IMG/VR virus record: IMGVR_UViG_3300034061_006011
Length of the DNA stretch: 64,000 nucleotides
Direction: 5' to 3' (one strand)
Origin: a virus
Lineage: Duplodnaviria; Caudoviricetes
Shown: in pieces, positions 8,637 to 27,023 of the stretch
Layout of the letters: every line of letters starts with the position of its first letter
How positions within the stretch are numbered: position 1 is the first letter of the stretch
Notes under the pieces: generated by a model
Told to the model about the DNA's origin: nothing
Database searches by the model: none
Seen by the model: only the letters and a program-made list of their open reading frames with translations
Position numbers and translations under genes: made by a program

Positions 8637-8912
8637 ATGTCGATGAAGAACAGATTCTTAGAAGGCATAGAAAATACCGAATTGCTCCAAATTCTTGAAA
8701 GCAGCTATCTAAAAGAAAAAATTGGTCTGCTACTTTCAAACGAAAACTTAGTTTATACAAAAAAAGGTCGCCTCAATAAATCTGGCGCTTGTAGAATCTT
8801 AAACATGAAAACTAAAGAACTCGAAACTTTTTTAGTAGAATGTAGAAAAGTTTTAGAAGTAGATCAATTCCTCGAACCCGATGAGTATGCATCTCTAGAT
8901 GCAGAAGACTAA
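8637..8912 (+). CDS. Hypothetical, possible HTH DNA-binding protein
   Basis: LNKSGACRILNM HTH-like segment. Confidence 0.45.
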   Translation: MSMKNRFLEGIENTELLQILESSYLKEKIGLLLSNENLVYTKKGRLNKSGACRILNMKTKELETFLVECRKVLEVDQFLEPDEYASLDAED

Positions 8913-9509: not shown

Positions 9510-10136
9510 TTAGTAAGAACCCGCTGTAGTTCCACAAATTCCTGTGCAAGGTGGATCTGTTTCTCCAGTATTACAGTAGTTCTCATATATTGCATAAGCA
9601 TATCTAAGTGATAACTCAATATTACATTCATCAGAAGATGAATAATCTAAATCACCAAAATTGATACTCTTAGGCCAACAGTTAATCAACTGCCACTTTT
9701 CTACAGCAAATCCGCAACCATCGAGCAAAGTAAGCACACCTGTGCCAGCATATCCTGAACCTATATCAGGATAACTTCCTTGTGTGGCGTATATTTGCTT
9801 TGTTCCTCCAATTTGCTCGAAGTTATAAACTCTATTTATCCATCTGAGCAAACTGTTAACAGTTGCATCTTCTAGAACAGCAACATCGTAATAAGTAAAA
9901 CTAATTTCATTAAAAGTAGCTTTACCGGGAATAAATGTTTTCCCATTTAAAAAATTGATTTCTGTTTCATCGATATCAATCTGCGGTCTATTACCAGATT
10001 TAACATACTGTCCACCGATGTTAAAACCACCAGCGCCGCCGACATTTTCCACTTGGAATGTCCATCGATATTTTCTTTTAAATGCCGCAGTGCCAAGCGG
10101 TCCAATGCCCATGTTGTTGTCTGTTGATGTAGCCAT
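9510..10136 (-). CDS. gp19: Tail tube protein (gp19-like), paralog 1
   Basis: KRKYRW, IPGKATFNEISFTYYD and WQLINCWPKSINFGDLDY motifs. Confidence 0.88.
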   Translation of the reverse strand: MATSTDNNMGIGPLGTAAFKRKYRWTFQVENVGGAGGFNIGGQYVKSGNRPQIDIDETEINFLNGKTFIPGKATFNEISFTYYDVAVLEDATVNSLLRWINRVYNFEQIGGTKQIYATQGSYPDIGSGYAGTGVLTLLDGCGFAVEKWQLINCWPKSINFGDLDYSSSDECNIELSLRYAYAIYENYCNTGETDPPCTGICGTTAGSY

Positions 10137-10175: not shown

Positions 10176-12509
10176 TTATGCTAACTCTCTAACCAAGTTA
10201 AATTCAATAAATATAAATTCAATGGCATAGGTTGGAACAATTCCAATTCTAGCTCTTAGTTCATTTCTAGCAATTACGTCTGGTGTGTTTAATTCTTCAT
10301 CACATTTGATTACAAAATTTGTTAATCCAGAATTGAGCTGCACTCTTGAAAGAATAGTTGAACAAGTATTTATAAAAATGCTCCTTGTTGAAGCTGTGTT
10401 TGGTTCAAACAACAATGATTTTGATGCTGTTTTAATTGATTTCTCGACATAGAACAACATTCTGCGAACATTAACTCTATCGAGAGCAGTTGGTGTTCTC
10501 TGTAGCGTCTTCTGACCCCAGATTACGAATCCAGTGATATCAGGATAAGTGATGATTGGATTGATAGCATTGCTGTTACCATACATCAAATCTTTTTCTT
10601 CAAGACTTGGTCTGGTGAAGACGTTATTGATATTAGGAACAATACCTCTCTTCAAACCTGCTGGAGCAAACCAAGGACCACCTAAATTATCACTCTGGCA
10701 GTAAGCTGCCATAACTGAACCAGATGGTGGAACCCAAACAGGAATATTGTTGAATACATCAGTTTGTTCTACCCAAGGATAATAAAGAGCAGCGAAGTCT
10801 GTATTAAGCTGAGTGTTGTTGAGTGGATGAACACCGTTCTGCCATTGAATAATTTCGTTAACAGTAAGACCGAAAGGAGGATCAATGATTGCTAAACAGT
10901 CTTGACGTAATTCACAAACATCAATTAGAGTCTGAATAACTGATGTTGAGCTACGTCCGGGTGTTGCAAGGAGATCGATTACAACCTGTTCTGGTTCAGA
11001 GAATGCATAAAGACCAGTTCCAGCGGTTGCATTCCCCTTGATGAGATCATCCTGAGCATCTGGATCAACTGGAATGCCATCAGTACCACCTGATAATTGA
11101 ATACCAGCAGCACCTGTATTTGCAGGAGGAGCAGACAATGCAGTGTTATCTGTAACTCTGATGAATGAACTTTGTGAGTTGATATATGTTGCAACGTAGA
11201 AAGAAGAGGTCTGATTCTTGGTCAAGTTACCCCAAGCTTCAACTTGTGCTCCATTATTAAACACTTTGAATGCGAATGTGCCATCATTAACATTGTTGGA
11301 AATTTGAACAACAGTTTCATTTCCTTCAATGCCGGGGCTGTCAGCATAAATGGTAAAGCTATAAGCACCAGATGCCGCAGAAGCTCCTCTTACAACGCCT
11401 GCTTCATCTGTCATACCATCATTAGTTGTTTGAACAGGAGATAAGCCAGATGCTGTAGCATTTGACAATCCAAAGATAACATCAAGTGTACTGTCGGTTT
11501 TAACAACAAGTTTACTTCCTGAACCGTAAGCTAATGTTCTAAGGATTATGTGGTCTGCGCCATCATCATCAGCTTCAAAGCCACCGAGAGGAGAAGCGAT
11601 TTGATTGTTAATTTCGGTTACAACTTGAGCTGTTGTATAAGTTCCACCAGCAAGAGCTGAAAGGTCAATAACCTGAACAACATCATCGATATTAACATTT
11701 CCTGTGCCGCTGATAACAACTTGTAGTGCTGTTGAAAGAATAGTTGATGATACGCCAGAGAAATTCCAATCACCAACTGAAGTGTAGATATCGTCAGGAT
11801 ATTTATCTTCAGTACCAAGAAGTTCAGCTTGTGTCATGGATGTTCCCATGCCAATGATGCTGCTTGCACCGCCATAGATGCTATCCTGATGAGAAACAAG
11901 TTCAATTGTTGAACTTGTTCCGTAAGCCCAAACAGACTTGAGGGTTACACTGTCGCCAGCTGTTGCTTCAAATATAATTCCGTCAATTTCTGAAACAAGT
12001 TGATTATTAAGAAAATCTACAAGTTCATCAGCAGTAGCATATGTGTCTGCATCAACTACAAGAATTTTGCTTGCAAGTACGCCGTTTAGTTTCCAGCTGA
12101 AATACTGATCGTCTGCAAAAACAAAAGGACCAGTAGCTGATCCAAGGATTTCAATCAAGCCACCAGTTGCAGGAGCGACAACTGCTGCTGTGTTTGCCTG
12201 ATAAGCACTTGTTGGATCGGTATCAGCAACTCTGGTTACGATGAGTTCGCTAGAAACTCTTAGAATCTGTTGTGCTGCATAGATTAGATAAGGATCACCA
12301 GTATCTGGGTGAGGATTGCCAAACTTGAAAACCAAGTCGGTAAGACTGGTTACTGAGGTTGGTGTATTGATTGGACCTTTACTCGCAAAACCTACAAGAC
12401 CAATACTATGGAAGCTTGTGGTTGGAGAAATGAAAGTCAAATCATTCTCTGTAATTCTTACAGATGGGCTAATCGTGTTGCTAGCAGGGAATCCTCGTAA
12501 GTTTGCCAT
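10176..12509 (-). CDS. gp18: Tail sheath protein (gp18-like)
   Basis: SPSVRITENDLT, GFASKGP, WFAPAG..RG and WGQKTL...ALDRVNVRR; AAGGAG RBS before MANLRG. Confidence 0.95.
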   Translation of the reverse strand: MANLRGFPASNTISPSVRITENDLTFISPTTSFHSIGLVGFASKGPINTPTSVTSLTDLVFKFGNPHPDTGDPYLIYAAQQILRVSSELIVTRVADTDPTSAYQANTAAVVAPATGGLIEILGSATGPFVFADDQYFSWKLNGVLASKILVVDADTYATADELVDFLNNQLVSEIDGIIFEATAGDSVTLKSVWAYGTSSTIELVSHQDSIYGGASSIIGMGTSMTQAELLGTEDKYPDDIYTSVGDWNFSGVSSTILSTALQVVISGTGNVNIDDVVQVIDLSALAGGTYTTAQVVTEINNQIASPLGGFEADDDGADHIILRTLAYGSGSKLVVKTDSTLDVIFGLSNATASGLSPVQTTNDGMTDEAGVVRGASAASGAYSFTIYADSPGIEGNETVVQISNNVNDGTFAFKVFNNGAQVEAWGNLTKNQTSSFYVATYINSQSSFIRVTDNTALSAPPANTGAAGIQLSGGTDGIPVDPDAQDDLIKGNATAGTGLYAFSEPEQVVIDLLATPGRSSTSVIQTLIDVCELRQDCLAIIDPPFGLTVNEIIQWQNGVHPLNNTQLNTDFAALYYPWVEQTDVFNNIPVWVPPSGSVMAAYCQSDNLGGPWFAPAGLKRGIVPNINNVFTRPSLEEKDLMYGNSNAINPIITYPDITGFVIWGQKTLQRTPTALDRVNVRRMLFYVEKSIKTASKSLLFEPNTASTRSIFINTCSTILSRVQLNSGLTNFVIKCDEELNTPDVIARNELRARIGIVPTYAIEFIFIEFNLVRELA

Positions 12510-12510
12510 T

Positions 12511-12738
12511 TTACTTTTCTCCTTCAATCAAAATATTATTCGATATATATCTAGTCTTTATCAGACCCATTTTTTCTACTCTTTCTATATATGCAGTAGA
12601 CCTCTCATCTTCTAAATTATAAATATTTTTTTTTGATCCCAATCCGGGAATGTTAAGAGTTGTAAAAGAATTTGACTTTTTCCTACTCTTAATTATAATT
12701 TGAACTGGATGCTTTTTCAAGTTTGTAATTTCAATCAT
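12511..12738 (-). CDS. Small hypothetical protein in tail operon
   Basis: 75-aa ORF between gp15 and sheath with overlapping start/stop. Confidence 0.6.
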   Translation of the reverse strand: MIEITNLKKHPVQIIIKSRKKSNSFTTLNIPGLGSKKNIYNLEDERSTAYIERVEKMGLIKTRYISNNILIEGEK

Positions 12739-13733
12739 AAAATTGGTGCCGTTTCCTCTATTTTTGCTAGAACCTCTGTTATTGTCGCTTCGTCTACTGA
12801 GTCAACAAGATCTGCCTTTACCACTTTAATCAAAGAATCGTATTGTTTAACTGGTAGTGGCACATATGTTTGAGCAGTTAGTCCGAATTGAAATTTTATT
12901 ACTCTTAAAGCTTGATCTCCGGGTTCGGTTTCAAGGTTATTAGCAATAGAATCCAATTTAACAATGACTTCTTGCAAAACGCCTCTAACTTTTATGTATG
13001 CTACAAGACTAAATTTTGTAACAATTTGTTCTAATATTTGATTCATATCTTCAAGTTGCATTGTCCAAGCATACATTGTGTAAGACACATTGATTGGAAT
13101 TCCTCTTGAAACTCCAAATAATGTTTCTCTGTTTTGATATTTTGGTGCTTTAATTGGTGAAGATCCAGTATAAGCTTCAATGTATCTTACTGCTTGATGA
13201 TATGTGTATCTTGTTGCATCTAATTCATATCCTGTTGAACTAATTGCAAGCATAGGAAGTTTGATTCTATCAACAACAAGTGTTTCATCTTTTCTTACAT
13301 TTTGTTGAAGGATTGCAGCAACTGCTCTTTCTTGTGTTGCCCAAATGATTGGAATATTATGAGCTTTTCCTTCTTCATCAATAACGACAATATTTCTGAA
13401 CAAATCCATTACAGCTTCGTCAGTTCCTCTTAATGCTTTTGAATATCTGTATACTATATTTTGATCTATTTGTTCTGCTGGATCATTAACAATTTTGCCA
13501 GCTTGCATTGGATCGCAGTTATTTGCTGCGCCGTTGCCAAGATTTTGAACTAAGTTATCATTAAGCCAATCGGCAGCGCCTTGTTCGCCGATATTATTTT
13601 GATTATCTGGTGGAACATGACAATCCATACCGGGAGGTGGATCAGTATTGTTTGATCTGCCTAAAATGCTTAGATCTGGGCAGGGGTTAATCTGGTTCTC
13701 GTAGTGATTTGGATTTGGACCTATTGGAAGCAT
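12735..13733 (-). CDS. gp15: Tail terminator/sheath stabilizer (gp15-like)
   Basis: IPIIWATQE, LPMLAI and PINVSYTM...EDMNQILEQIVTKF match gp15. Confidence 0.85.
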   Translation of the reverse strand: MLPIGPNPNHYENQINPCPDLSILGRSNNTDPPPGMDCHVPPDNQNNIGEQGAADWLNDNLVQNLGNGAANNCDPMQAGKIVNDPAEQIDQNIVYRYSKALRGTDEAVMDLFRNIVVIDEEGKAHNIPIIWATQERAVAAILQQNVRKDETLVVDRIKLPMLAISSTGYELDATRYTYHQAVRYIEAYTGSSPIKAPKYQNRETLFGVSRGIPINVSYTMYAWTMQLEDMNQILEQIVTKFSLVAYIKVRGVLQEVIVKLDSIANNLETEPGDQALRVIKFQFGLTAQTYVPLPVKQYDSLIKVVKADLVDSVDEATITEVLAKIEETAPIL

Positions 13734-14689: not shown

Positions 14690-14697
14690 TATAAATA
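14690..14697 (+). promoter_or_regulatory. T4-type late promoter TATAAATA (second copy at 14659-14666)
   Basis: Exact TATAAATA 6 nt upstream of ATG 14704; gp55-like sigma is encoded in the window. Confidence 0.55.
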
Positions 14698-14703
14698 AAC
14701 ATT

Positions 14704-15216
14704 ATGAAAACATTTTTTGATTGGATGGCAAGTAACAGATATTATACTGAAGATACAAGAACAGGCATGCCTGTTAATCCTAATCAGCAAAAAGCACCTG
14801 TTGCTCCTAATCAGCAACAAACAACTGGTTTCCCAGATAATCGTGACACAAGTGTAAGAAGAGCAGCACCAAGCAATCCACAAGCTAACAATCAAATGAA
14901 TGTAAGCAAAGAATTCGAAAATAGATGGTCTGCAAATTTTCCGTTAATAGTACAATCACTTAAACAAGCTGGTGTATCGATTAATAGTCTAAGTCCCAAT
15001 GACCAGTCAGCCGCTACCGGTGGTATCAGCAATATTTCAAAAAACTTAGATAATGTCGCAAAGAATTTTATAGATTACAAAAATCAGACTGTTCAAACTT
15101 TTGCTATATTAAGAAATATGTTGAACCAAAAAAGACAAGAACTAAAAAATTCACCGCCGCCTGTTAATCGAATGAGTGATCCCGCCTACAGTAGAGAGGC
15201 GGGAAGAGTTCAATAA
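14704..15216 (+). CDS. Q/N/P-rich putative internal head protein
   Basis: Starts MKTFFDW, resembling a capsid-targeting sequence. Confidence 0.6.
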   Translation: MKTFFDWMASNRYYTEDTRTGMPVNPNQQKAPVAPNQQQTTGFPDNRDTSVRRAAPSNPQANNQMNVSKEFENRWSANFPLIVQSLKQAGVSINSLSPNDQSAATGGISNISKNLDNVAKNFIDYKNQTVQTFAILRNMLNQKRQELKNSPPPVNRMSDPAYSREAGRVQ

Positions 15217-15233
15217 TTAATTAAATTTACAAA

Positions 15234-15932
15234 TTACATTCCGCCGTAGCCGCCACCCATTCCAGTGCCGCTACCGCCGCCTTGACCGCCGCCACCCATT
15301 CCAGCACCCATACCACCGCCCATGCCGCCCATGCCACCACCAAAGCCGCCACTCATATCACCAGAGCCTTGATCTGCGCCACCTGCTCCTGCGCCGCCAC
15401 TCATATCACCACCTGTTGGCGGTGCGCTTACATTTGGAGCGCCTTCAGGAGAACCTTCTTCTCCACCTTCTTCTTCTCCACCCTCTTCTTCTCCCTCTTC
15501 TCCTTCTTCATCTTCTCCAGAAATACTCTTGATAAGATTATCGAGTTGATTTAAAAGATCTTCAATTTGTCCACCCTTGTCTTCATCTTGACTCTTGAAA
15601 TTTTCAATTTGATTTTTAAGAGTTTCAATAGCTGACTTAGTGCTTTCTGTATCTGATCCACCTTCGCTTGGTGCAACATTTGATTCATCGGTGTCTGCTG
15701 GCGCATCACCTTGTTGACCTTGTTGATTTTGGAAAGTATTCATTTGATCTTGTGGGATCTGTGCTTGTGCAGAAAAATCTGGTTGACCACCAGCAGGAGG
15801 AGCGCCAGCATTGCCACCACCCATGGGGTTAGGATTTTGCATCATACCGGGCATCGGCATGCCACCTGCATCTTGTTCTCTAAAAACCCTTTTGTTTTCA
15901 AGAATTCTGTACATCTCATAAAAAGTCTTCAT
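15234..15932 (-). CDS. G/M/E-rich low-complexity putative internal head protein
   Basis: Starts MKTFYEM; GGM/GGG and EEG tracts. Confidence 0.65.
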   Translation of the reverse strand: MKTFYEMYRILENKRVFREQDAGGMPMPGMMQNPNPMGGGNAGAPPAGGQPDFSAQAQIPQDQMNTFQNQQGQQGDAPADTDESNVAPSEGGSDTESTKSAIETLKNQIENFKSQDEDKGGQIEDLLNQLDNLIKSISGEDEEGEEGEEEGGEEEGGEEGSPEGAPNVSAPPTGGDMSGGAGAGGADQGSGDMSGGFGGGMGGMGGGMGAGMGGGGQGGGSGTGMGGGYGGM

Positions 15933-15940
15933 ATTTACTC

Positions 15941-16477
15941 CTAAACTATCTTAAAATCAGCGTTTTCAGTCTTTCCAACAGATGAACCACTAACAGTATC
16001 TTCTTGGAATCTCTGACAAATAAGTTGTAGTCTCAATGCATTATATAGTTTAAACTCACCTAATTTTCTTTCAATAATGACCCAATCTTCATTTAAAAAT
16101 GGAGTCTTGACTCTACTACCTATTTTAGGTGGGTGACCAAGATCCCTTAAAACTGCACGATAGTTCAAATCAAATGTCATTTCATCAGGTGAATCTATAC
16201 CAAAAGCAGTTTGCATATTTTGGGAAGGAATTGGTTCGTATACACACCATAGTTGTATAGGATTTTGACTATAAATTTTTGCTCTTGATTCAACATAAAG
16301 AGGATCAATATTATTTGCATCTATGAAAAGTTCATAATAGAACAATGGTGATCCGCCCAGACGGATTGTTTCTTCATCATAAAGATCAAACAAGCTTCTT
16401 TCTGGCAATCCATCATCGAATTGCTGCAAGCTTCCTGTGGGACAATATGGTTTTCCATCTGGTTTATATATTGTCAT
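15941..16477 (-). CDS. gp14: Neck protein (gp14-like)
   Basis: EETIRLGG.PLFYY, FGIDSPDEMTF, PKIGSRV and LICQRF match gp14. Confidence 0.8.
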   Translation of the reverse strand: MTIYKPDGKPYCPTGSLQQFDDGLPERSLFDLYDEETIRLGGSPLFYYELFIDANNIDPLYVESRAKIYSQNPIQLWCVYEPIPSQNMQTAFGIDSPDEMTFDLNYRAVLRDLGHPPKIGSRVKTPFLNEDWVIIERKLGEFKLYNALRLQLICQRFQEDTVSGSSVGKTENADFKIV

Positions 16478-16484
16478 TTTTTCC

Positions 16485-16889
16485 TTAAGTACAACTGTTA
16501 AGAGAAATTTGTGCTGTAATCAGGATCTGTCCACCACTTCCGGGCAATTGAAAAGGAGCAGCGGTAAATCTTTCAATCCATAGTAAATCACCACCGACAT
16601 TTGTAATATAATATCCAAAAACAGTTGCAGCTGCTGTAATATTAAATGTTTGTTCTGGATAGCTTGCAGTGGTAACACCAGAAGTTGTTGCAACTGTCCA
16701 AGTTGCTGCTGTTAGAGTGATGCCTGCATATCCAGTAGCAGTAACTTGTGTTATATCACCTAACACAGTAGTTGAGCTTGGTGTTAAATTATTTGAGTAA
16801 AGACGCAACACAGTATTTGTTGGTGCTACCTTATTAAGCATATTGCTTAAAAGAACTACTTCGCCAACATCTGGAATTACTAATGCCAT
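16485..16889 (-). CDS. Putative virion structural protein
   Basis: GEVVLL...LRLY...TGYA pattern; similar to 28123-28641; AGGAG RBS. Confidence 0.55.
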   Translation of the reverse strand: MALVIPDVGEVVLLSNMLNKVAPTNTVLRLYSNNLTPSSTTVLGDITQVTATGYAGITLTAATWTVATTSGVTTASYPEQTFNITAAATVFGYYITNVGGDLLWIERFTAAPFQLPGSGGQILITAQISLNSCT

Positions 16890-16912
16890 GAAAAACTCCT
16901 AGTTAATTCGAT

Positions 16913-16926
16913 CTATATATATTTAG
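16913..16926. promoter_or_regulatory. Bidirectional TA-rich promoter element between divergent genes
   Basis: CTATATATATTTAG; TATATA lies 7 nt before ATG 16927; reads CTAAATA on the minus strand. Confidence 0.45.
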
Positions 16927-17526
16927 ATGGTAATTCATAAAAAAGATGGAAGTGTTTTTAAATTAAATGGACCTAATGAAATTATGTTCACACAGGAATC
17001 GTGGAGTGCCTTCAAAACACACAATTTATCAAACTTATCAAATTGCAAAATGGAATCAAATATTCCTCATGTTATTTTAGGAAAGAAGAAAATTGTTGAA
17101 GAAAATAAGGTAATTGAACCAATTAAAGAAGAAATTGTTGAAGAAGAAATTGTTATTGAAGAAACTCCTGAAGAAATTGTCGTTGAAGAAGTTGTTGAAG
17201 ATAAAAAGAAAACAAATGAATTTGATAATTTTAAAAAAACTATTATGCATTGTGCTTTAGCAAAGAAAATAGAAGTGAAAGATGATTTGTATGGTGAAAC
17301 TGCATTAAAGGTAAAATTTATTGATAAATTTACATTTGAATCTATAGTTATGAACAAAAATGATTTTGTACTTATATTTTGGACAAAACTAGATAATTTG
17401 ACAATTGGATCTGTGTTATATCCACAAGATGATTCAAAAAGATGGTGGGAAGTGAGAGAAATTGAGGATGTTCCCGGTGGTCACAAGATTACTTGTTGTA
17501 TCACCAGAAACACCCCTGCTTTTTAA
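16927..17526 (+). CDS. Hypothetical protein with acidic EEIV repeats
   Basis: 199-aa ORF; N-terminus resembles the gp14 start. Confidence 0.6.
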   Translation: MVIHKKDGSVFKLNGPNEIMFTQESWSAFKTHNLSNLSNCKMESNIPHVILGKKKIVEENKVIEPIKEEIVEEEIVIEETPEEIVVEEVVEDKKKTNEFDNFKKTIMHCALAKKIEVKDDLYGETALKVKFIDKFTFESIVMNKNDFVLIFWTKLDNLTIGSVLYPQDDSKRWWEVREIEDVPGGHKITCCITRNTPAF

Positions 17527-19448
17527 GTTATTGCTTTATCCATCATCTCACCTATTGCTGCTCGAACAGCAGCAGCATCAGCATCTTTGCCAAATCTTTT
17601 TCTCATTGTTCCAGAAACTCCTAAATTCTTTTTATATAATACATAACTTAGGCTACTCATTAAACTTCTCAAGGTTTGTGAAATGACAGTTTGTGCAAGT
17701 CTTGTCGCTATTGGACGAGTTAAATTAAAAAGTCTTAAATTCCTTAAAGCTTTATCTTTTATTAGATTTTTAAAAGCTAAATATGTTGTTGGCGATATGA
17801 TTCCTTCTTCAGGATCATAAAATGTTTTCAAGAAAATATTAAATCTTCCCTCATAATTTTCTTTTACGAATTTTTTAACAAGTTCATCAAATAAATCATC
17901 ATCACCCATTACAAGCATAAGGTTTTCTAAATTTTGATTTAAATCTTGTCTGCCCGGTCCTGCTTCATATTCAGATGATTTATTTGGGTATACACCTCCC
18001 GCCAATGTTCTATCTCTTTTGTCTAAATCTTCTGGAACATCTCTTTCATTATCAAATTGATAAAATATTGGTTTTCTTTTTCGATTTGCAGCAGGTTGTT
18101 CTATATCTCTTGGATCATAATGATGTCCAACTCTACGAGTTGCTTCCAAATTTCTGATCAGATCTCCTAATCTTTGAACTTCTTCTGGATCTTCTTTTGC
18201 TTCTGCGTCTGCAACTTTTTTTTGTAATTTTTCTATTGTTTGATTAATGTTAAAAAGTATTTTACCCGGAAGCAATTCTGGCATCGTTTGACCGGGATGA
18301 TGAGGATTAGCTACTGTAGGATGTCTTAACTTTGAGAAAGACATTGTATCAAAGTCTTCACCATGATAATTTTGTATTGGATATGTGATTAAATCTATAT
18401 CAACTAAAGCATCAATTAATTTTTCTTCAAATTTAACACTGTGTTCAGCATGTTGAACAATATGTGATAAATTGTTAAATGTCATTTTATGTGGATTTCT
18501 TATATTGACTTCCTTTCTTAAATCATCAGCAAATCTAGCTCGATTTGCTAATAAGTACGAATATATATCAGTATTTGGTTTCTTAAGTTGAAATTTTTTA
18601 TTTAAAATGGTTACATCTTTTTGTGTAAGTGCTTTTTTAATAAATTTTTCTTCTAATTCTTTTATGTATTTTGCATACTTGTTGTACAATGGTGTCCTAT
18701 AGATATCTCTTTCTATTTCTTCTTCTGTAGCTTCAGTGTTTGCAGCATATTCAGTTTTTGATCTTTCTCTGTGTGTTTTTGGATCTATAGTATTCGGTGC
18801 ATGTAAAAGTCCTTGTGAGGCATATGTTACCCAAGATTGTAAATTGTTTGAAATTTGTTTTACTTGTGGACAAGTAAAACCAATAGTGTACCAGTTACCA
18901 ACTGGATTTTCAGGATCGAAATTTCTAATTTTGCTTAAATCAAAACCAACTGCACTTGCTCCTCTTGGTCCTTCCAGTCTATCAACTAATTCTCTAATAT
19001 AATTATTTTTTATTGTTGTAGATGTTGCTCGTTTTCTAATAACGAAACTATATTCTGTTCTTGGATAATTGATGTTCATCCAAGCTCCACCACCATCTGG
19101 TCTTTGTGCCAATTCACTATCAATAAAGTTTTTTGCATTATTATATGCACTTTCTCTGATTCTTGTTACTTCTTCAGGCTGATTGCCTTTGTAAGTCAAT
19201 CCTTGATATATTCCGTCTGCTGCATCTTGTATTGTTTCGTAATAACCTTTACTGAATCCTTTAATTTTTTTCTTTCTAGCTTCTTCTCTCTGCGTAAGTG
19301 CTGCGGGTAAATCAAGTCCATATCGCTCTTCAATGGCTCTTGCCCATACAGATTGTGGAAATTGATGTAGAAAATCCATATCATCGTTTCCGAACAGATG
19401 AAAGTCGTGACTTACATGTCCAGAAAAGTATTCACTAAAAAGTTTCAT
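17523..19448 (-). CDS. Large hypothetical, putative internal head protein
   Basis: 641-aa ORF; starts MKLFSEYF; GAGGA RBS. Confidence 0.6.
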   Translation of the reverse strand: MKLFSEYFSGHVSHDFHLFGNDDMDFLHQFPQSVWARAIEERYGLDLPAALTQREEARKKKIKGFSKGYYETIQDAADGIYQGLTYKGNQPEEVTRIRESAYNNAKNFIDSELAQRPDGGGAWMNINYPRTEYSFVIRKRATSTTIKNNYIRELVDRLEGPRGASAVGFDLSKIRNFDPENPVGNWYTIGFTCPQVKQISNNLQSWVTYASQGLLHAPNTIDPKTHRERSKTEYAANTEATEEEIERDIYRTPLYNKYAKYIKELEEKFIKKALTQKDVTILNKKFQLKKPNTDIYSYLLANRARFADDLRKEVNIRNPHKMTFNNLSHIVQHAEHSVKFEEKLIDALVDIDLITYPIQNYHGEDFDTMSFSKLRHPTVANPHHPGQTMPELLPGKILFNINQTIEKLQKKVADAEAKEDPEEVQRLGDLIRNLEATRRVGHHYDPRDIEQPAANRKRKPIFYQFDNERDVPEDLDKRDRTLAGGVYPNKSSEYEAGPGRQDLNQNLENLMLVMGDDDLFDELVKKFVKENYEGRFNIFLKTFYDPEEGIISPTTYLAFKNLIKDKALRNLRLFNLTRPIATRLAQTVISQTLRSLMSSLSYVLYKKNLGVSGTMRKRFGKDADAAAVRAAIGEMMDKAIT

Positions 19449-19473
19449 TCATGTTCCTCAATTTGACTGTTAC

Positions 19474-19487
19474 TTTATATATATAAA
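19474..19487. promoter_or_regulatory. Palindromic TTTATATATATAAA bidirectional promoter candidate
   Basis: Perfect 14-bp palindrome between divergent starts 19448(-) and 19489(+). Confidence 0.5.
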
Positions 19488-19488
19488 C

Positions 19489-20376
19489 ATGTCATATTCT
19501 TGTGCTTCAAATACTATGTATTTTCCCCGTCCAAGTGCGGAGTCGCAAAATTGTAGTACTAATAATTTCAATCTTGGGGTTTCTGATCCCCTTGATATTG
19601 CTCAATTATCACCAAGACCAAACAGAACAAAAGTAAAAGCACAAATTAGAGATTATATTCTTTTAATGCTTGGTGCTCCAGTAGTTACAATTGAATTAGA
19701 TAGTCAACAACTTGATGCTGCTGTTGATTTATCTCTTCAGATTTATGAAGAATATGCACCAAGAGAATTCTTTAAATACCATGTGTTCCAGACAATTCCC
19801 GGTAAAAGCATTTACACAATGCCTCCAGATATTGGTTATGTAAGAAATGTTTTTTACAAACAAATGGCAACATTTAGTTTTAGTTCTTCTGACCTTGGTG
19901 GAGCTATTCCTATTGAATATTTTTATCCGGGTGGAGCATATGCTTCTATTACAGGTGGTATGATTGATAGTGTGACTCCAATTTGGGGTCGAGTTGGAGA
20001 ATGGAGTCTTTACAAAGAATATGAAAGAACTTATGCTCGTAGTGCAAGTAATTTAGGTGGTTGGGAATGGCTTGGTGGTTATCAAAATATTAAATTATAT
20101 CCAATTCCGAGAGCACCAACTGCTGTTATTGTTCATTATTTGCAAAAAAACAATGATTGGCAGAGAGTTAATCAGGCTATGCAAGAAGGTGCTTTAGCGC
20201 ATGCAAAGATTATGTTAGGAAGAATTAGAGGCAAATATACAACATTGCCCGGTGCTCAGGGTGGAGTTCAGTTAGATGGAGCTACTTTGTTGACAGAGGG
20301 GATTCAAGAAAAGAAGGATTGGGAAGAAAGATTGATTACCAGATATGGCGATATTCCTTTCATTTCAATGGGATAA
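19489..20376 (+). CDS. gp13: Neck protein (gp13-like)
   Basis: IRDYILLMLGAPVVTIELDSQQL; LPG..GGVQLDG..L..EG. Confidence 0.9.
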   Translation: MSYSCASNTMYFPRPSAESQNCSTNNFNLGVSDPLDIAQLSPRPNRTKVKAQIRDYILLMLGAPVVTIELDSQQLDAAVDLSLQIYEEYAPREFFKYHVFQTIPGKSIYTMPPDIGYVRNVFYKQMATFSFSSSDLGGAIPIEYFYPGGAYASITGGMIDSVTPIWGRVGEWSLYKEYERTYARSASNLGGWEWLGGYQNIKLYPIPRAPTAVIVHYLQKNNDWQRVNQAMQEGALAHAKIMLGRIRGKYTTLPGAQGGVQLDGATLLTEGIQEKKDWEERLITRYGDIPFISMG

Positions 20377-20379
20377 TAC

Positions 20380-21012
20380 ATGAAAACATTCAAAGAATAT
20401 GTCGAATTAAGAGAAACAAAAACAAATTTGCTCCAGCAAGGAAAAGGTTGGCTTGGTGGACTTGTAAAATCTGCTGGTAAATTTGCAGCTTCATTTATTC
20501 CGGGCGCAGACGCAGCAAGTGCAGCTGTGGATATGGCTACACAAATATATAATGTCAAGAAGCAAAAAGGAAAAGTAAATGAATTAATTAGAAAAGCAGC
20601 ATCTTTACCAGATAATAGTAGAGGATCTGTAAAGAATGGAGATATTTTTGATGTTTCTGACACTTTGTGGAATACAGTTAATAAAGACTCTCAAGATAAA
20701 ATTATAAATATTGTTGACAAAAATTTAGATAGATATATTGCAGCTAATCAGATGCCTAAACCTAGTTTTGCTGACATGCTTGCTCACAAGTATGTTATTG
20801 GTAAATTACCAAGAGCAACATCTAAAATAGTTCCTGTACAAGGACAAGCAGCGCCACAACAAGGTCAAGCTGCACCACAACCACAACAAGCAGCACCACA
20901 ACAAGGACAGCAACGTCAAGCTGCACCACAACAACCACAACAACCACAGCAACGTCAAGCTGCACCACAACAACCACAACAACCACAGCAACGTCAAGCT
21001 GTTCGTCGTTAA
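20380..21012 (+). CDS. Putative internal head protein with Q/P-rich tail
   Basis: Starts MKTFKEYVE; QAAPQQ repeats. Confidence 0.65.
   Translation: MKTFKEYVELRETKTNLLQQGKGWLGGLVKSAGKFAASFIPGADAASAAVDMATQIYNVKKQKGKVNELIRKAASLPDNSRGSVKNGDIFDVSDTLWNTVNKDSQDKIINIVDKNLDRYIAANQMPKPSFADMLAHKYVIGKLPRATSKIVPVQGQAAPQQGQAAPQPQQAAPQQGQQRQAAPQQPQQPQQRQAAPQQPQQPQQRQAVRR
20830..21000 (+). repeat. Coding tandem repeats (QAAPQQ / QQRQAAPQQPQQP)
   Basis: Repeated caagctgcaccacaacaa units. Confidence 0.85.
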
Positions 21013-21042
21013 AAATATTTAGCATTAAAGATAAATAACAAT

Positions 21043-21501
21043 ATGATCAATTATAATGAGTTTATAAAAGCATTGAATGAAGGCTCACAGAATATGAGAT
21101 ATTCTGTTGAGGTTAATTTCGATACACCTAAAGAAGATTGTTTAGTTTCTTACGCAAAAATAGTTCTTGGTTATGTTAGTGCAGCAATGAAGAAGATGGA
21201 TTATCATGTTAAGCTTGTGTTTTCACATAAGCCATTAAGATTGATTGTTGCTTCTAGAAATTGGGATGATGGGGAATGGGTTGGGATGATTTCTTACAAT
21301 GAAGAAAAAGATCATTTCACTTTATCAAAAGGTTTTTATAACAAACTTAAGAAAACAGTTGCAGTTCAAGACACTAGTACAATAAGTGATCCCGTAAATG
21401 CAAAGATATTATCTTACAAATTACGGGATTTAATGAAAGATTTAGAGGGCAAAAAGGATCGATTTGCCCCCGAATTTAGAAAATTAAGAATCAATCTTTA
21501 A
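21043..21501 (+). CDS. Putative internal head protein
   Basis: Starts MINYNEFIKALNE. Confidence 0.6.
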   Translation: MINYNEFIKALNEGSQNMRYSVEVNFDTPKEDCLVSYAKIVLGYVSAAMKKMDYHVKLVFSHKPLRLIVASRNWDDGEWVGMISYNEEKDHFTLSKGFYNKLKKTVAVQDTSTISDPVNAKILSYKLRDLMKDLEGKKDRFAPEFRKLRINL

Positions 21502-21859
21502 TAATTTTAATATTGGAGCAAGGACTTTCGACTAGAAGAACTTCATCTAGATGTTCTTGTTCGCCTTCCTTAAGGATCTTCTTCTTGCTGGTTTGACCTG
21601 CTGCAACGTGTTCAACCTTGCCTTCATTTGTTACGATAGGTGGTTGGTCAAGAATAAGCTTACTTTCCACGATTACCTCTTTCTGCTTATAGGGTCCAAT
21701 AAAACGAATCATACCAACTTTGACAAATTCGAAAAAATCTTTTTCTGCCAAGAATTGTCCTCTTGGCTTAATCATTTCCAGACCCTTATAAGCAGGTCTA
21801 GAAAGTTTTAAATCATAGTTGTGATGATTTTCAAAAAGAAACAGTTCTGGGATATTCAT
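21491..21859 (-). CDS. Hypothetical protein
   Basis: ATG at 21859 (MNIPEL) lies 6 nt after TATAAT. Confidence 0.55.
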   Translation of the reverse strand: MNIPELFLFENHHNYDLKLSRPAYKGLEMIKPRGQFLAEKDFFEFVKVGMIRFIGPYKQKEVIVESKLILDQPPIVTNEGKVEHVAAGQTSKKKILKEGEQEHLDEVLLVESPCSNIKIIKD

Positions 21860-21874
21860 AACTATATTATAGTA
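21860..21874. promoter_or_regulatory. 15-bp bidirectional leaderless promoter candidate
   Basis: TATATT-N6-ATG on + and TATAAT-N6-ATG on -, overlapping in the near-palindrome ACTATATTATAGT. Confidence 0.5.
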
Positions 21875-22210
21875 ATGAATAATAAAAAAATGCCAAACTG
21901 GTATGAAATATATCCCCAAGGAACACCTGAAGGGGAAGAAGAAAAGAAATTTTTCTTATCTTTGATTAGGAATAAAAAATATAAAAATTGGCGTAGCGTG
22001 TCTGCTATTTCAAAAGAATCAGGATTGACAGAAGAAAAAATTGAACAAATTATATTCAAATACCATAAAATTGGACTTATAATTCAAAGCCCCGCTAACT
22101 CAGAGTTCTGGGGTTACTATTACAATAATTTAGAAGATGTTAAAGAAGATCCAATTTCTGTAATCGAAGAAGAAAGAAAAAAAATTCTTAAAAAAGCTAA
22201 AAATCCTTAA
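21875..22210 (+). CDS. Hypothetical, possible winged-helix protein
   Basis: WRSVSAISKESGLTEEKIEQII HTH-like segment. Confidence 0.5.
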   Translation: MNNKKMPNWYEIYPQGTPEGEEEKKFFLSLIRNKKYKNWRSVSAISKESGLTEEKIEQIIFKYHKIGLIIQSPANSEFWGYYYNNLEDVKEDPISVIEEERKKILKKAKNP

Positions 22211-22346
22211 GCCATTGGTATAAAACAACTTTCATAATAATAAAAACGGATATAGGCATCGGAACAAACCCAATGCGCTATACCAGTTCTTCTTATGTTT
22301 TCAAAAATATTTTATCTCTTGATTCGAGATATTCCATAAACTTCAT
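22207..22346 (-). pseudogene. Frameshifted tandem paralog of 22346-22546
   Basis: MKFMEYLESRDK in frame 0 continues in the -1 frame as NIFENIRRTGIAHWVCSDAYIR...FIPMA*, which aligns to ENAKRGGIATWAYPDAYAR...FMPIA. Confidence 0.7.
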
Positions 22347-22546
22347 TACTTGGAATTAACTTTTCTTCCAATTCCCAACTTAAATGCCGCATCAGCTGCT
22401 ATTGGCATAAAGTAGTTAGAAGGATACTGACCTCTTGCATAAGCATCAGGATAAGCCCAAGTAGCGATACCGCCTCGCTTGGCGTTCTCGTTAACAGTAG
22501 GAACCTTCAAGTTATTTTCAGTTGCCCAATCGGTAAATGTTTTCAT
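22346..22546 (-). CDS. Small putative internal head protein
   Basis: Starts MKTFTDW; GAGGA RBS; CTAAATA upstream. Confidence 0.65.
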   Translation of the reverse strand: MKTFTDWATENNLKVPTVNENAKRGGIATWAYPDAYARGQYPSNYFMPIAADAAFKLGIGRKVNSK

Positions 22547-22620
22547 TTATGTCCTCACAAAAAGTCATCCTTTACTTATTTAGATGTGTGCTCACATTTT
22601 TTAATTAAAATGACTAAAAA

Positions 22621-23172
22621 ATGACCAAAAAATTAATACCGATTATTGTTACATCAATTCAAGAAATATCCCAAGAAAACGCATTTGAATCGAGTATCTT
22701 ATGTAATTGCTGTAAAACAATTTCTCGGATGGTTAATGATTCTGGATTATGTGCGTTTTGTTTTAAAAAAATAGAACAATTTAACAACATCAAGGTTTTT
22801 AACTTTAAACCTTGTTATTATCTTTTTATGAAAATTGGCATTCAAAAAACAATAATGGAAGAAATTGAAGCAGAACAAACGAATATTGGTTTGTTTACGA
22901 ATTATATGGAATACAGTCCAAATAATATGATTTGGTATGTATACAGAGATATAGAACCGAAAGAATTGTTTACTAAAGTTGAAGAAATGTACAATTTGTT
23001 TAAACAGACAGGATTGTTTGACAAATCTTTCTATAAACTAAATATTGAAAAAACAAGAAGTTTATTTTTTAATAAAAATAAATTTATTTGCATAGGATTT
23101 AATTTTGCAGAACTATCTGATGACAATTATTTATCAGCAAGTTTTTTTGATAAAGAGCGGATTTTCTTGTGA
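22621..23172 (+). CDS. Hypothetical protein with Cys cluster
   Basis: 183-aa ORF; CNCC..CAFC. Confidence 0.55.
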   Translation: MTKKLIPIIVTSIQEISQENAFESSILCNCCKTISRMVNDSGLCAFCFKKIEQFNNIKVFNFKPCYYLFMKIGIQKTIMEEIEAEQTNIGLFTNYMEYSPNNMIWYVYRDIEPKELFTKVEEMYNLFKQTGLFDKSFYKLNIEKTRSLFFNKNKFICIGFNFAELSDDNYLSASFFDKERIFL

Positions 23173-23196
23173 TTTTTCTTAAAAGTATGCTATTTT
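23167..23196 (+). promoter_or_regulatory. Sigma70-type promoter with extended -10
   Basis: TTGTGA-N18-TATTTT with TG at the extended position. Confidence 0.4.
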
Positions 23197-23239
23197 AATT
23201 ATGCAGATGTTGTTAAGTTTTTTGTTAAAGGAGCGTCAG

Positions 23240-23602
23240 ATGAGCGAAGCTAAGACCAAGAGTGCTACAAAGTCAACCACCAAGACTTCAGTGCCAGCAA
23301 ATTCCATTCGTTACAAGATTGTAACGAAGCTTTCTGGTGTTAACGAAGTTTATGAAGCAACGGCTGAAATTTCCGGCTTCAAGGCTACAAAGGTTACCCG
23401 ACAGGATGGCACTACTGCCTTCACTACTCGTTCCGCTCTTACTAAGGCTTGCAAGGATCGTGCAGCTTCCCTCAAGCGTATTCCAATCTTTGATCTTGGT
23501 TCTGCAACTGTTGCACCTAGCAAGAAGGCAAAGGCACCAAAGGCTGGTAAGGTTGTTACCTTCTGCTCAACTGGTTGTCCAGTAACGGGCGCATGCTCTT
23601 AA
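23240..23602 (+). CDS. Small basic K/A/T-rich protein
   Basis: AAGGAG RBS; biased codon use (AAG, GCT, CGT); followed by a terminator. Confidence 0.7.
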   Translation: MSEAKTKSATKSTTKTSVPANSIRYKIVTKLSGVNEVYEATAEISGFKATKVTRQDGTTAFTTRSALTKACKDRAASLKRIPIFDLGSATVAPSKKAKAPKAGKVVTFCSTGCPVTGACS

Positions 23603-23616
23603 GTTAATTTAAATTT

Positions 23617-23667
23617 AAAAAAAACAAGACCTAATCGTAATTTTTAATGATTAGGTCTTGTTTTTTT
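23617..23667. terminator. Bidirectional rho-independent terminator
   Basis: AAAAAAACAAGACCTAATC...GATTAGGTCTTGTTTTTTT inverted repeat. Confidence 0.85.
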
Positions 23668-23722
23668 ATTATTATTCATGAATTGTATTCTTACTTGATA
23701 TATAATATTAAATGGAGGCGAT

Positions 23723-23941
23723 ATGGGTTGCGGATGTGGTGGTAAAAAAGGCACAATGCCCAACAGAAACGTAGTTAGAAACACTTCTATACAACAAAAT
23801 ATTGTCAGATCTATTGGAACTGGAGTTACTGAAGCTTTAAATCAACAAATAACAACACCAGTTGGTATGGACAAAAATCGTTTAGAAGTTGAAAAAAAAA
23901 GAAGAGAAGCTATTAAAAAGTCTCTAGGAAAAATGATCTAA
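23723..23941 (+). CDS. Small protein with MGCGCGG N-terminus
   Basis: GGAGG RBS; 72 aa. Confidence 0.7.
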   Translation: MGCGCGGKKGTMPNRNVVRNTSIQQNIVRSIGTGVTEALNQQITTPVGMDKNRLEVEKKRREAIKKSLGKMI

Positions 23942-23980
23942 GTATCTATATACAATAAATTGTATTTTTGGAGAACCAAC

Positions 23981-25021
23981 ATGCTCAATTATGAAAAGTG
24001 GAAGAAACTCAATGAGAGCTTTATGATGTCATCACCAATTGGTGGCATTACCCATAACAATGGGTTCCTTGCTTATAGTCCTCTCTCTGAAGCCGAAATG
24101 GACAGAGATGAAGATGAAGACATGGAAGATGAAGACATGGAAGACGAAGACATGGAAGACGAAGATATGGAAGATGAAGACATGGATGATGAAGATATGG
24201 AAGATGAAGATATGGAAGATGAAGATATGGATGATGAAGATATGGATGATGAAGATATGGATGATGAAGACATGGATGATGAAGACATGGATGATGAAGA
24301 TGATGGAGAAATGGAAATTCAAGATGATGCTGGAGAAATTGAAGAAATAGAAGATGGTGATGAATCAGAAGATTCTGATGACGGTGCTGTTCATCATCAT
24401 CACCACCACTACCATGGTCATAAGAATAAAGAAGCATATAGCGATGATGCAGATGAAGAAGCTGGCAATGAGATGATGTGCAAGCGTTGTGGTTCTTACA
24501 TGGCTAACGAAAATCATGATTGTGGCATTGATGAGTGGGCTGCTAGTGTTAAGTCTTTGATTAATCCAGTTATTTTACAGAAGCTTAATGGTAAGATTTT
24601 GACTGAAGCATCATTCAAGGGTGCTAAAATTGATATTAAAGATGGTGAAGTTGGTTCTGTTGGTGCTGTAAAGTCTAAATTAAAAACTTTCCTTGATGGT
24701 GTCGAAAGTCAAATTGACAGCATGACTGATAGACAAAGATATTCAATTCTTTCCAGTGTTGTTAACGCTTTGGTTACCGATGCTGAACTTCCTGACTTCT
24801 TGAAGTTTATCAAAATGGAAAAAAGTTCAATTGTGAAGAGTGACCCAAAAGAAACAGAAGAAAAAATGTATAAGGGTAGAGTCTCCAAGAAGAAAAGTGG
24901 TCCATGCAAGAAGTGTTCAACTAGCATGAAATTTATGCCAGCAAAATCAGGCAAGTATGCTGGCAAAAATATGCCAACAAAATCAGGCAAGTATGCTGGC
25001 AAAAAAATGAAAAAGAAATGA
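23981..25021 (+). CDS. Acidic-repeat/His-tract protein, putative internal head protein
   Basis: GGAGA RBS; starts MLNYEKWKKLNE; EDM(E/D)D repeats, poly-His, basic C-terminus. Confidence 0.7.
   Translation: MLNYEKWKKLNESFMMSSPIGGITHNNGFLAYSPLSEAEMDRDEDEDMEDEDMEDEDMEDEDMEDEDMDDEDMEDEDMEDEDMDDEDMDDEDMDDEDMDDEDMDDEDDGEMEIQDDAGEIEEIEDGDESEDSDDGAVHHHHHHYHGHKNKEAYSDDADEEAGNEMMCKRCGSYMANENHDCGIDEWAASVKSLINPVILQKLNGKILTEASFKGAKIDIKDGEVGSVGAVKSKLKTFLDGVESQIDSMTDRQRYSILSSVVNALVTDAELPDFLKFIKMEKSSIVKSDPKETEEKMYKGRVSKKKSGPCKKCSTSMKFMPAKSGKYAGKNMPTKSGKYAGKKMKKK
24105..24305 (+). repeat. 15-nt tandem repeat encoding EDM(D/E)D
   Basis: About 12-13 copies of gaagayatggaw-gay. Confidence 0.9.
24935..25006 (+). 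repeat. 36-nt direct duplication (MP[A/T]KSGKYAGK[N/K])
   Basis: Two near-identical copies starting at 24935 and 24971. Confidence 0.85.
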
Positions 25022-25037
25022 GGTAGCACTTAACTAC

Positions 25038-25937
25038 TTAGCCTCCCATGCAGTTTGCATGGGAGGCTATTTTTTTTGCATCATTGATTTGCTGAACCAA
25101 ATCATTAGGCATAAAATTAAAAATAAAACCAAGAAGTCTATCAGCTTCAAATTTATTACAATTATTAATTGCATCTTTGATAATATTCACATCATAACCA
25201 AAACAATTATATGAAATCTTATCACCAATTGTAACAGTCCAGAATTTTTCCCAAATCTTTTCGATCATTTCATTGTAAACGAAATCAGTTAAAGAATAAA
25301 CCAATGCTGTATATTCTGGTTTGCCAATCCACCAAGAACTCAAAACTCTATATTCAATTCCATAATTCTTTGGTCTAAAAGATCCAGCTCTACCAAAAAC
25401 CTTCCTTCTATCAATTTGACTTAAATCATTGTCTATAGCAACAGACGTTAAACCTAAAAATAAATCAAGCATGTAAACAAACAAAGGTTTAATAATCGGA
25501 TCAAGCAGAATTTCATCTCCAACAGATCCAATGTGCAAATGTCCACCTGAAGTCCTTACAGAACTATTTTTAATAAAGTTTTTAGGTTCTGTGTTTATCA
25601 TCAACGTATATGCGTTGTATTCGTCGTCACAGCCACTTTCTTTTGCATTAGCATCTTGCAGCACACTTTGCTCAATGATAGCAGCAGCTGTCAAATCGAC
25701 CTTATAAGGAGATGCTAGTTTTTCTAACAGATAAACGCCGTTTGTGATATTTGTGATAAATTCTCGTGCATTATTGCATGGAGGAATATTAAATTCTGCT
25801 AAAATATTATCATAATATATTTTTATTTTTTGTTTTTTGTAAGGATTATCTTTGTCATGTGTAATATGCTTTGCAGCATTAATTACTTGATCAGAAGAAT
25901 TGCGTAGGAAACACTCTACATCTGATCCTATTTGCAC
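25038..25937 (-). CDS. phiEco32-like COOH-NH2 ligase (type 2)
   Basis: IGSDVECFL, DNILAEFN, RTSGGHLHIG and GRAGSFRPKNYGIEYRVLSSWW motifs. Confidence 0.85.
   Translation of the reverse strand: MQIGSDVECFLRNSSDQVINAAKHITHDKDNPYKKQKIKIYYDNILAEFNIPPCNNAREFITNITNGVYLLEKLASPYKVDLTAAAIIEQSVLQDANAKESGCDDEYNAYTLMINTEPKNFIKNSSVRTSGGHLHIGSVGDEILLDPIIKPLFVYMLDLFLGLTSVAIDNDLSQIDRRKVFGRAGSFRPKNYGIEYRVLSSWWIGKPEYTALVYSLTDFVYNEMIEKIWEKFWTVTIGDKISYNCFGYDVNIIKDAINNCNKFEADRLLGFIFNFMPNDLVQQINDAKKIASHANCMGG
25039..25077 (+). terminator. Rho-independent terminator
   Basis: TAGCCTCCCATGCA-GTT-TGCATGGGAGGCTA followed by T8. Confidence 0.9.
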
Positions 25938-26011
25938 AACAAAATCCTCTGATGATAGATGATACTAATAAATTAGAATCATTGAATAATTAATTAAAGA
26001 AAATATAATTA

Positions 26012-26914
26012 CTAGTCATCATTTCCATATGTTTCTAAAAGCCAAGACAATGCTCTAGCATATTGTTTTGGATATAGATAATAATGGAATATTTTAATAA
26101 ATTCTTGTGCAATGCTTTCTGATCTAATAATTTGATTTGTTATTTGTTTCAACGCACTTGTTGCCCTTATTGCAGATTTTGTGACTTTCTCAGCTAATCT
26201 TTTTACAAACTCATCAGCATCAAAATCGTCTTCAGGCAAAAACAATTTATCCTCATGCTTCAACATACTGTTTCTGTTTTGATATGTTTTGTCACTTTTA
26301 AGATCTATATCTTTATACTTTTCAAGAAATTCTTCTAAATTAATTTTTTCCCAATTATTATCTCTTTCTGAAAATGAAATAATTTTATCTGGATTTAAAT
26401 TTCCAGTAAATAAAGCTTGATATTCAGAACTATCAAAAAGCACTTTAGTCATATAGGGATTATCACTAGATTTAACAAATTCAGGTTGGTTTTGATCATT
26501 TCTTATTTCGTTTTCAAATCTTTTTTTAGTTGCCAATCTTTCAACCTTGCTTCTAAATGTTGGCATATAAGAACCTTGTGTACCATATGATCCCTGTACC
26601 CAAACTGGTGGTTCTAGATCTTCGTATTTTGCAATAAATTCTACAACGCACCCATCAAGAGCAAAATCTCTAGCTGTTTTTTCTGATATTGTGACAAATA
26701 GTCCTTTAGGATTTGTGTTTGCTTCATAAGAATATTTCCTAGCGGGTCTTAACTGTCCTGAAATGCCATATCTAGCTGCAATTATTGCTTCTGTGACATT
26801 GTCAAACCCATGGAAAACTCTTACAGTGTCTCCTCTTTTCAAAGGTTCAAAATCACCTCGCATGTTGTCATATTTGTGCAAATGCTCGTTTAGCCAATCA
26901 TAAAATGTATTCAT
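26012..26914 (-). CDS. Putative ADP-ribosyltransferase-fold internal head protein
   Basis: Starts MNTFYDWLNE; VFHG...GLFVT...TARDFA..G.VVEF order of ART-like elements. Confidence 0.45.
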   Translation of the reverse strand: MNTFYDWLNEHLHKYDNMRGDFEPLKRGDTVRVFHGFDNVTEAIIAARYGISGQLRPARKYSYEANTNPKGLFVTISEKTARDFALDGCVVEFIAKYEDLEPPVWVQGSYGTQGSYMPTFRSKVERLATKKRFENEIRNDQNQPEFVKSSDNPYMTKVLFDSSEYQALFTGNLNPDKIISFSERDNNWEKINLEEFLEKYKDIDLKSDKTYQNRNSMLKHEDKLFLPEDDFDADEFVKRLAEKVTKSAIRATSALKQITNQIIRSESIAQEFIKIFHYYLYPKQYARALSWLLETYGNDD

Positions 26915-27023
26915 AATGCTATTTATGACTGCGTTTAATAATATTATCGTTCCAAGCATTTGTTTCTGAATAATTAATTAATTAGAAAAGGCTGGTTTTA
27001 ACTCTATATATTGTATAATTTGA

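Follow-up and report, generated by a model that had tools for sequence, protein, structure and literature searches.

Eight intact genes and one gene remnant whose starts lie between positions 14,704 and 26,914 of the virus record IMGVR_UViG_3300034061_006011 (Duplodnaviria; Caudoviricetes) begin with variants of a single short peptide, which we read, with a probability of about 0.7, as a capsid-targeting sequence of the type found on the internal proteins (IPs) of phage T4. By analogy with T4, we infer that the tagged proteins are packaged into the head, cleaved and injected. The DNA analysed (64,000 nt; hereafter the window) is a myovirus segment with a G+C content of 32-33% that includes a primase gene. 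Megablast against cultured phages gave no match to the window, and the nearest tail sheaths from cultured phages share 33-34% identity with that of the window across half its length. IMG/VR contains a near-identical 91-kb twin contig (L001/G002) and about 40 relatives, retrieved via the neck adaptor protein (19489-20376), whose neck proteins are 53-93% identical to that of the window. The phage genome is probably about 0.5 Mb, because CheckV completeness is 16%, 23% and 46% for contigs of 91, 116 and 223 kb, respectively, and one homologue of the ADP-ribosyltransferase (ART)-fold protein described below sits on a 563-kb contig. The source phage is uncultured, T4-like and of freshwater origin.

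The sequence-only reading that preceded this analysis had listed nine N-termini, all of which were found where it placed them: MKTFFDW (14704, +), MKTFYEM (15932, -), MKLFSEY (19448, -), MKTFKEY (20380, +), MINYNEF (21043, +), MKFMEYL (22346, -), MKTFTDW (22546, -), MLNYEKW (23981, +) and MNTFYDW (26914, -). Its count of about nine genes is reduced to eight intact ones, the start at 22346 belonging to a 17-codon remnant of a paralogue. MLNYEKW lies at the second ATG of its open reading frame (ORF) and MNTFYDW at an internal ATG of ORF 26012-26959, in both cases where the homologues start. All nine tags begin at the initiator Met. Eight of them have F or Y at position 4 (MKFMEYL is shifted by one), all have W, Y, F or M at position 7, and the length from Met to Glu is mostly 10-13 residues. 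A strict pattern, M[KINL][TLN][FY]x[DE][WFYM], has eight six-frame matches in the window, seven of them at the named ORF starts, as compared to 0.13 on average, and never more than 2, in 100 Markov-2 shuffles. The eighth match (MNTFTEMIGSTINFLSKFNE at 58729, -) falls at residue 1640 of a 2011-aa ORF (57614-63649) and, lacking a ribosome site, is probably a chance occurrence; this ORF is helical and tape-measure-like.

The tag is not confined to the cluster. Of the 568 gene starts in the window and three related contigs, 17 fit the strict pattern; shuffling residues 2-26 lowers the number to 0.2. A medium pattern matches 6 of 70 genes in the window (8 if the two starts that are not at the first ATG are included), 6 of 61 in the 48 kb that lie upstream of the window on the twin contig, 6 of 134 in G005 and 14 of 303 in G004, two of the relatives, and 4 of 129 in T4 as a control. 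Tags upstream on the twin contig include, among others, MKSFQEYYLMRE, MKFHEYVQLRE, MKGFKNWLNE and MTFKDFLQLDE, and tagged genes, on either strand, are distributed across more than 100 kb. A loose pattern was dropped for counting, as it gave about 4% false positives in T4 and matched one portal, one primase and one methyltransferase in the relatives. The earlier statement that the set can be identified from the leader alone holds for narrow patterns.

The resemblance to T4 is close in both sequence and register. As read from AF158101, with a slash after the Glu at which the leader ends, the T4 leaders are MKTYQEFIAE/A in IPII and IPIII and MKTFKEFTSTTTPVSTITE/A in IPI (MKTFKEF...ITE/A). The tag at 20380 (MKTFKEYVELRE) has the first six residues of IPI, MKTFKE, and that at 26914 (MNTFYDWLNE) reproduces the IPII/IPIII layout exactly, with aromatic residues at 4 and 7, an aliphatic residue at 8 and Glu at 10. 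The first 10 residues of IPIII are sufficient for incorporation, positions 4 and 7 being the chief determinants of targeting and 8 and 10 of processing, and the prohead protease gp21 cleaves after L/I-x-E (PMC9026906). The window-derived pattern applied to 83 kb of T4 (129 called genes) returned ipI, ipII and ipIII and nothing else. The medium, slightly wider pattern adds only gp57B (73952-74410 of AF158101, starting MMEFKDFSTGLYVAAKFSE), whose gene adjoins ipI.

Beyond the tag the proteins have little in common. An all-versus-all BLASTP of the window proteins minus their first 20 residues gave no E value below 0.3, in agreement with the earlier description of the bodies as unrelated, and 36 tagged proteins of the clade have a mean column identity of 7%. 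No Pfam, PHROG or PADLOC match was obtained for the eight tagged proteins. Among the tail, baseplate, replication and metabolic genes that could be recognised in the window, none is tagged. The codons differ among the nine starts (AAA/AAG, ACA/ACT, TTT/TTC, GAA/GAG), as do the aromatic residues at position 7, which argues that constraint acts on the peptide.

A hydrophobic-x-Glu site had been described as following most of the tags, and it does so within 20 residues in seven of nine (ILE12, LRE12, LNE13, VNE20, YLE8, LNE12 and LNE10), that is, in six intact genes and the remnant, the genes at 14704 and 19448 being the two that depart from the rule. The site is retained in orthologues. An alignment of the 152-aa family of 21043 (20 orthologues, the most distant 37% identical) shows Glu13 in every sequence, always after L/I/F/V-x; the leader ahead of it is 9-52 residues long and the conserved body starts 3-6 residues past it. 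In the 300-aa family of 26914 (43 sequences, the most distant 26% identical) conservation of Glu9 is 90% or higher, and nearly all members begin M-x-(x)-hydrophobic-x-x-hydrophobic-(x)-x-E. By eye, a site is also kept in the 232-aa family as (L/F/I)-x-E/QD (residues 17-21 of 15932), in the 66-aa family as (V/I/F/L)-x-E/N and in the 346-aa family as LNE/(S/N), the leader of the last being conserved down to 33% identity; Asn is the commonest P2 residue across the clade. In the AlphaFold models of the 152-aa and 300-aa proteins, residues 4-11 form a helix, which a low-confidence linker joins to a confidently predicted fold.

Relatives of the window encode a protease of the gp21 type. PF03420 (Peptidase_S77) was found in G004, G005 and G006; the clade protein hits the head maturation protease family of PHROGs (8e-46) and shares 28% identity with T4 gp21. 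The gene order is S77 protease, a gene of 296-300 aa in the scaffold position and a gp23-like capsid protein, as part of a T4-type head module; no similarity to gp22 could be detected in the scaffold-position protein. LNE, INE, FLNE and ELE occur near the starts of the protease and the capsid protein, and their L-N-E context is that of four of the window tags. A 9.8-kb contig (L069) from the same metagenome as the twin has the protease/scaffold/capsid module, its protease gene at 5828-6487, with three tagged ORFs directly alongside. Within the same head block, two genes before the protease, is a conserved 115-116-aa tagged gene (MQ[ST]FQDFISRRF...NE; L069:3576-3926, -, and L068:3767-4114, -) flanked by a putative portal gene and a 587-592-aa gene, roughly the position of the T4 prohead core genes 67 and 68. 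The tagged set of the relatives also yielded one T4-type portal match (PF07230, 7e-76) and one intein splicing-domain match (PF14890, 5e-12). An 847-aa protein of G004 (L062:12106-14646, starting MPLWSDFFKLF...) matches the loose tag and would be an intein-bearing portal if both domains belong to it; an 842-aa protein of G006 (L068:1237-3765) resembles it at the N-terminus. The T4 register and specificity of the tag, the junction Glu, the S77 protease of the clade and the absence of the tag from tail, baseplate and replication genes together make the earlier proposal of a T4-type targeting leader well supported at the level of sequence.

Several observations weigh against this reading. The head module is absent from both the window and the 91-kb twin; the protease was found in relatives and in L069, whose linkage to the window is unproven. 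The gene at 14704 has only YTE16, and that at 19448 has no site before AIE40. As 37% of the clade's gene starts have a hydrophobic-x-Glu within residues 5-24, this feature is weak when taken alone. In five close relatives the orthologue of 21043 lacks the aromatic part of the tag (MNNKNQKFNE) and keeps the Glu site, indicating that the targeting part of this protein is dispensable or replaced. Finally, the exact T4 late promoter TATAAATA is not enriched in the window (14 vs 8).

The tagged genes and the structural genes around them are listed in Table 1. The genes at 14704 and 20380 are confined to the closest relatives, whereas the remaining six intact genes are kept throughout the clade. Most relatives have 6-15 nt between the neck gene and the 152-aa gene; in this slot the window lineage has the 210-aa tagged gene, L019 and L020 a different tagged gene of 79 aa (MKTFREYFESRE) and L036 and L040 one of 41 aa. 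Tagged genes are gained and lost at this syntenic position. The remnant differs from an intact 73-aa copy in L002 (MKFMEYLESRDKKLFETIRRTGIAHWAYP...) by a 1-nt deletion followed by decay, and the identical lesion in the independently assembled L001 identifies it as a real pseudogene. For the 641-aa protein, homologue searching gave only domain-less, clade-restricted proteins and a feature-based search no usable match. The 152-aa protein (model confidence, pLDDT, 80.8) matched only a generic alpha/beta sandwich (frataxin/Nqo15, Z 8.6) and uncharacterised viral proteins in fold searches. A 72-aa ORF (23723-23941, +) has a Cys-rich N-terminus, MGCGCGGKKG, and in L021 an ORF starting MGCGCNEIK lies at a similar position.

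Table 1. Tagged genes and structural landmarks of the window (a slash marks the junction after Glu; pI, isoelectric point).
Feature	Position	Strand	Remarks
Tail-tube paralogues, two, adjacent	8909-9499 and 9510-10136	-	both match phrog_4542
Tail sheath	10176-12509		
gp15-like sheath stabiliser	12735-13733		
170-aa tagged protein, MKTFFDW...YTE16	14704-15216	+	P/N/Q-rich N-terminal half, pI 9.9; closest relatives only
232-aa tagged protein, MKTFYEMYRILE/N..FRE/QD	15234-15932	-	Gly/Met/Pro-rich, pI 4.1; clade-conserved
641-aa tagged protein, MKLFSEY...	17523-19448	-	clade-restricted; divergent to neck gene
Neck/head-tail adaptor	19489-20376	+	untagged, context marker; phrog_211, 4e-16
210-aa tagged protein, MKTFKEYVELRE/T	20380-21012	+	Q/P-rich repeats, pI 10.1; lineage-specific insertion
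152-aa tagged protein, MINYNEFIKALNE/G	21043-21501	+	helix 4-11, disorder 11-19, alpha/beta sandwich body
Remnant, MKFMEYLESRDKIFLKT and stop, MKFMEYL start	22293-22346	-	17 codons; paralogue of neighbouring 66-aa gene
66-aa tagged protein, MKTFTDW...TVNE/N	22346-22546	-	basic body, conserved RGGIAxWAYP; orthologues keep V/I/F/L-x-E
346-aa tagged protein, MLNYEKWKKLNE/S	23981-25021	+	poly-acidic DEDME repeats, His run, Cys motif, basic tail
300-aa tagged protein, MNTFYDWLNE/H	26012-26914	-	ART-fold domain (about residues 25-200) and helical C-terminal domain
Baseplate block	about 44.9-57.6 kb		

The 300-aa protein alone among the tagged products looks like an enzyme. It has 57 homologues, and its model (pLDDT 90.7) gave as best match in a VIA structure search the Rhs ART toxin TreX (Z 8.0; root-mean-square deviation 3.9 over 108 residues), with nearly all of the top 30 rows being ARTs and the next rows comprising pertussis-like toxins, Scabin, DarT, Tpt1 and PARP. 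The top Foldseek rows are likewise all ARTs, though with a best E value of only 0.019. In the family alignment H35, G36, Y61, S62, Y63, E64, E164 and Q166 are invariant or nearly so. When ART catalytic positions were mapped by secondary structure alone, the invariant H35-G36 fell at the end of strand 30-37, G71-L-F73-V-T on strand 72-75 and E164 just ahead of strand 166-169, which tentatively suggests an H-Y/F-E-type site. The family profile matched no PDB sequence and no Pfam entry. With a leader of the cleavable type and an ART-fold domain, this protein may be an enzyme that is packaged and modifies the host.

If the tag works as in T4, its short helix would dock a new protein, through the aromatic residues at 4 and 7, onto the assembling prohead core; a gp21-type (S77) prohead protease would then cut at hydrophobic-x-Glu, removing the tag and leaving the mature protein in the head, and after ejection the ART-fold protein may act on host targets as T4 Alt does. 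The receptor of the tag in the prohead may be a conserved component, such as the protease or the propeptide of the capsid protein, rather than the scaffold, since the tag is almost unchanged from T4 and the scaffold has diverged beyond recognition. What such tagged proteins do is a separate matter. The sequence-only reading had described an injected effector set, a description that suits 14704 and 20380 as lineage-specific cargo and 26012-26914 as an enzyme-like protein, and does not suit the five of eight that are clade-conserved neck/head genes. The cargo is probably mixed, consisting of conserved internal or core head proteins (15932, 19448, 21043, 22546 and 23981), exchangeable accessory proteins (14704 and 20380) and at least one enzyme.

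These conserved members lend themselves to another explanation, in which the tag does direct proteins to the prohead but the majority serve in assembly, core- or scaffold-like in the manner of T4 gp67 and gp68, and are degraded, expelled or inert instead of acting on the host. Several tagged proteins are indeed of low complexity and very acidic or basic, more like internal or core head proteins than effectors; 15932 and 23981 (pI 4.3, 29% D+E) are low-complexity and acidic, recalling the acidic stretch of T4 gp67; five of the eight occupy fixed neck/head positions across the clade; and packing about 0.5 Mb into one head would call for a large core. Such a role does not, however, account for the enzyme fold and conserved catalytic-type residues of 26012-26914 or for the compact, globular body of 21043, and 14704 and 20380, being lineage-specific, are not essential assembly parts. 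We consider this explanation fairly unlikely.

Another candidate partner for the tag lies inside the cluster itself. Between two of the tagged genes is a phiEco32-like COOH-NH2 ligase (25038-25937, -; phrog_3815, 3e-52; PF14395), and a class-II glutamine amidotransferase-like gene (321-1115, +) stands at the start of the window; the two could form a peptide or metabolite ligation system, and no link between either of them and the tags was found. Were the tag a recognition peptide for a modifying enzyme such as this ligase, or for a chaperone or some other sorting system, its near-identity to the experimentally defined T4 targeting sequence, key residues included, would be hard to understand; moreover, the tag tracks the S77 protease clade and ends in the motif of that protease, and tagged genes lie scattered on both strands across more than 100 kb, unlinked to the ligase. 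We regard recognition by another partner as improbable.

The DNA ahead of the tags was also considered. ATAAATA-N4-8-ATG precedes three tagged starts, 14704, 21043 and 26914 (14691-14706, 21031-21045 and 26912-26926), with ATAAATA 5-6 nt before the ATG (6 nt for 14704) and no Shine-Dalgarno sequence in any of them. Over four sequence sets the arrangement occurs at 6 of 49 tagged and 7 of 519 untagged starts (p = 3e-4), the untagged ones including baseplate genes; in the window it is not enriched overall, only at tagged and late-looking starts. ATAAATA resembles the T4 late promoter, a hint that fits late expression, and if it is such a promoter the mRNAs of the three genes would be nearly leaderless. 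That the tag is only the by-product of a mobile cassette of promoter, ribosome site and start codon, its peptide functionless, would be in line with this enrichment and with the mobile regulatory cassettes of T4-type phages (PMC2839356) but is very improbable, given that the nine starts share no long identical upstream DNA and differ in codons and position-7 aromatics, that orthologues sharing 26-50% identity still have the Glu and the aromatic positions, and that a cassette could move the tag yet leaves its retention unexplained.

Should the leader act as it does in T4, the proteins that the phage carries into its host could be read from the genome sequence alone, giving a provisional virion-cargo role to a sizeable share of otherwise unannotatable genes and flagging candidate host-takeover or anti-defence enzymes such as the ART-fold protein. 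We tentatively suggest, with more doubt than conviction, that cargo delivered by the capsid and bearing one portable tag of 10-13 residues, ART-like enzymes included, takes up roughly 5-10% of the genes of the lineage (perhaps 30-60 proteins), and that its injected proteome is an order of magnitude above that of T4. In the literature on capsid-targeting tags in metagenomic and jumbo phages we found no paper describing such expansions. The natural variants of the tag may be of use to T4 protein-packaging technology, and its conservation across distant heads bears on the question in T4 assembly of what the tag binds.

In kind, the proposed mechanism is the one already known from T4. The novelty lies in the scale that it would reach in an uncultured and very distant lineage of giant phages, and in a tag that has stayed nearly identical although the core has diverged. 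In common with the T4 IPs, the window proteins have a tag of about 10-20 residues of the form M-K-T-[FY]-x-E-[FWY], with aromatic residues at 4 and 7 and a hydrophobic-x-Glu, on unrelated bodies, a gp21-type S77 protease in the clade, and cargo genes that turn over between relatives. The differences are that T4 has three such genes (about 1%), whereas 8 of 70 window genes and 6 of 61 in the adjoining 48 kb (about 10%) are tagged, that the cut site of the window clade favours L-N-E, and that its scaffold has no detectable similarity to gp22 and its protease only 28% identity to gp21. T4 Alt, an ART that is packaged in the head, cleaved by gp21 (PMC9026906) and injected with the DNA, bears comparison with 26012-26914, a leader-bearing protein of ART-like fold; the window protein, however, has no sequence similarity to Alt, its fold match (Z 8.0) is to a bacterial toxin, and an H-Y/F-E-type site is suggested for it in place of the R-S-E type of Alt. 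Giant phages of the phiKZ type (phiKZ, 201phi2-1 and SPN3US) have a diverged homologue of gp21 that cleaves a large number of head proteins after Glu, and these proteins enter the host by ejection (PMC9026906; PMC5694885). Their propeptides, however, are mostly longer than 100 residues, with the motif S/A-x-E and no single short common tag, whereas the tag of the window phage is short and T4-like and the head module of its clade is of the T4 type.

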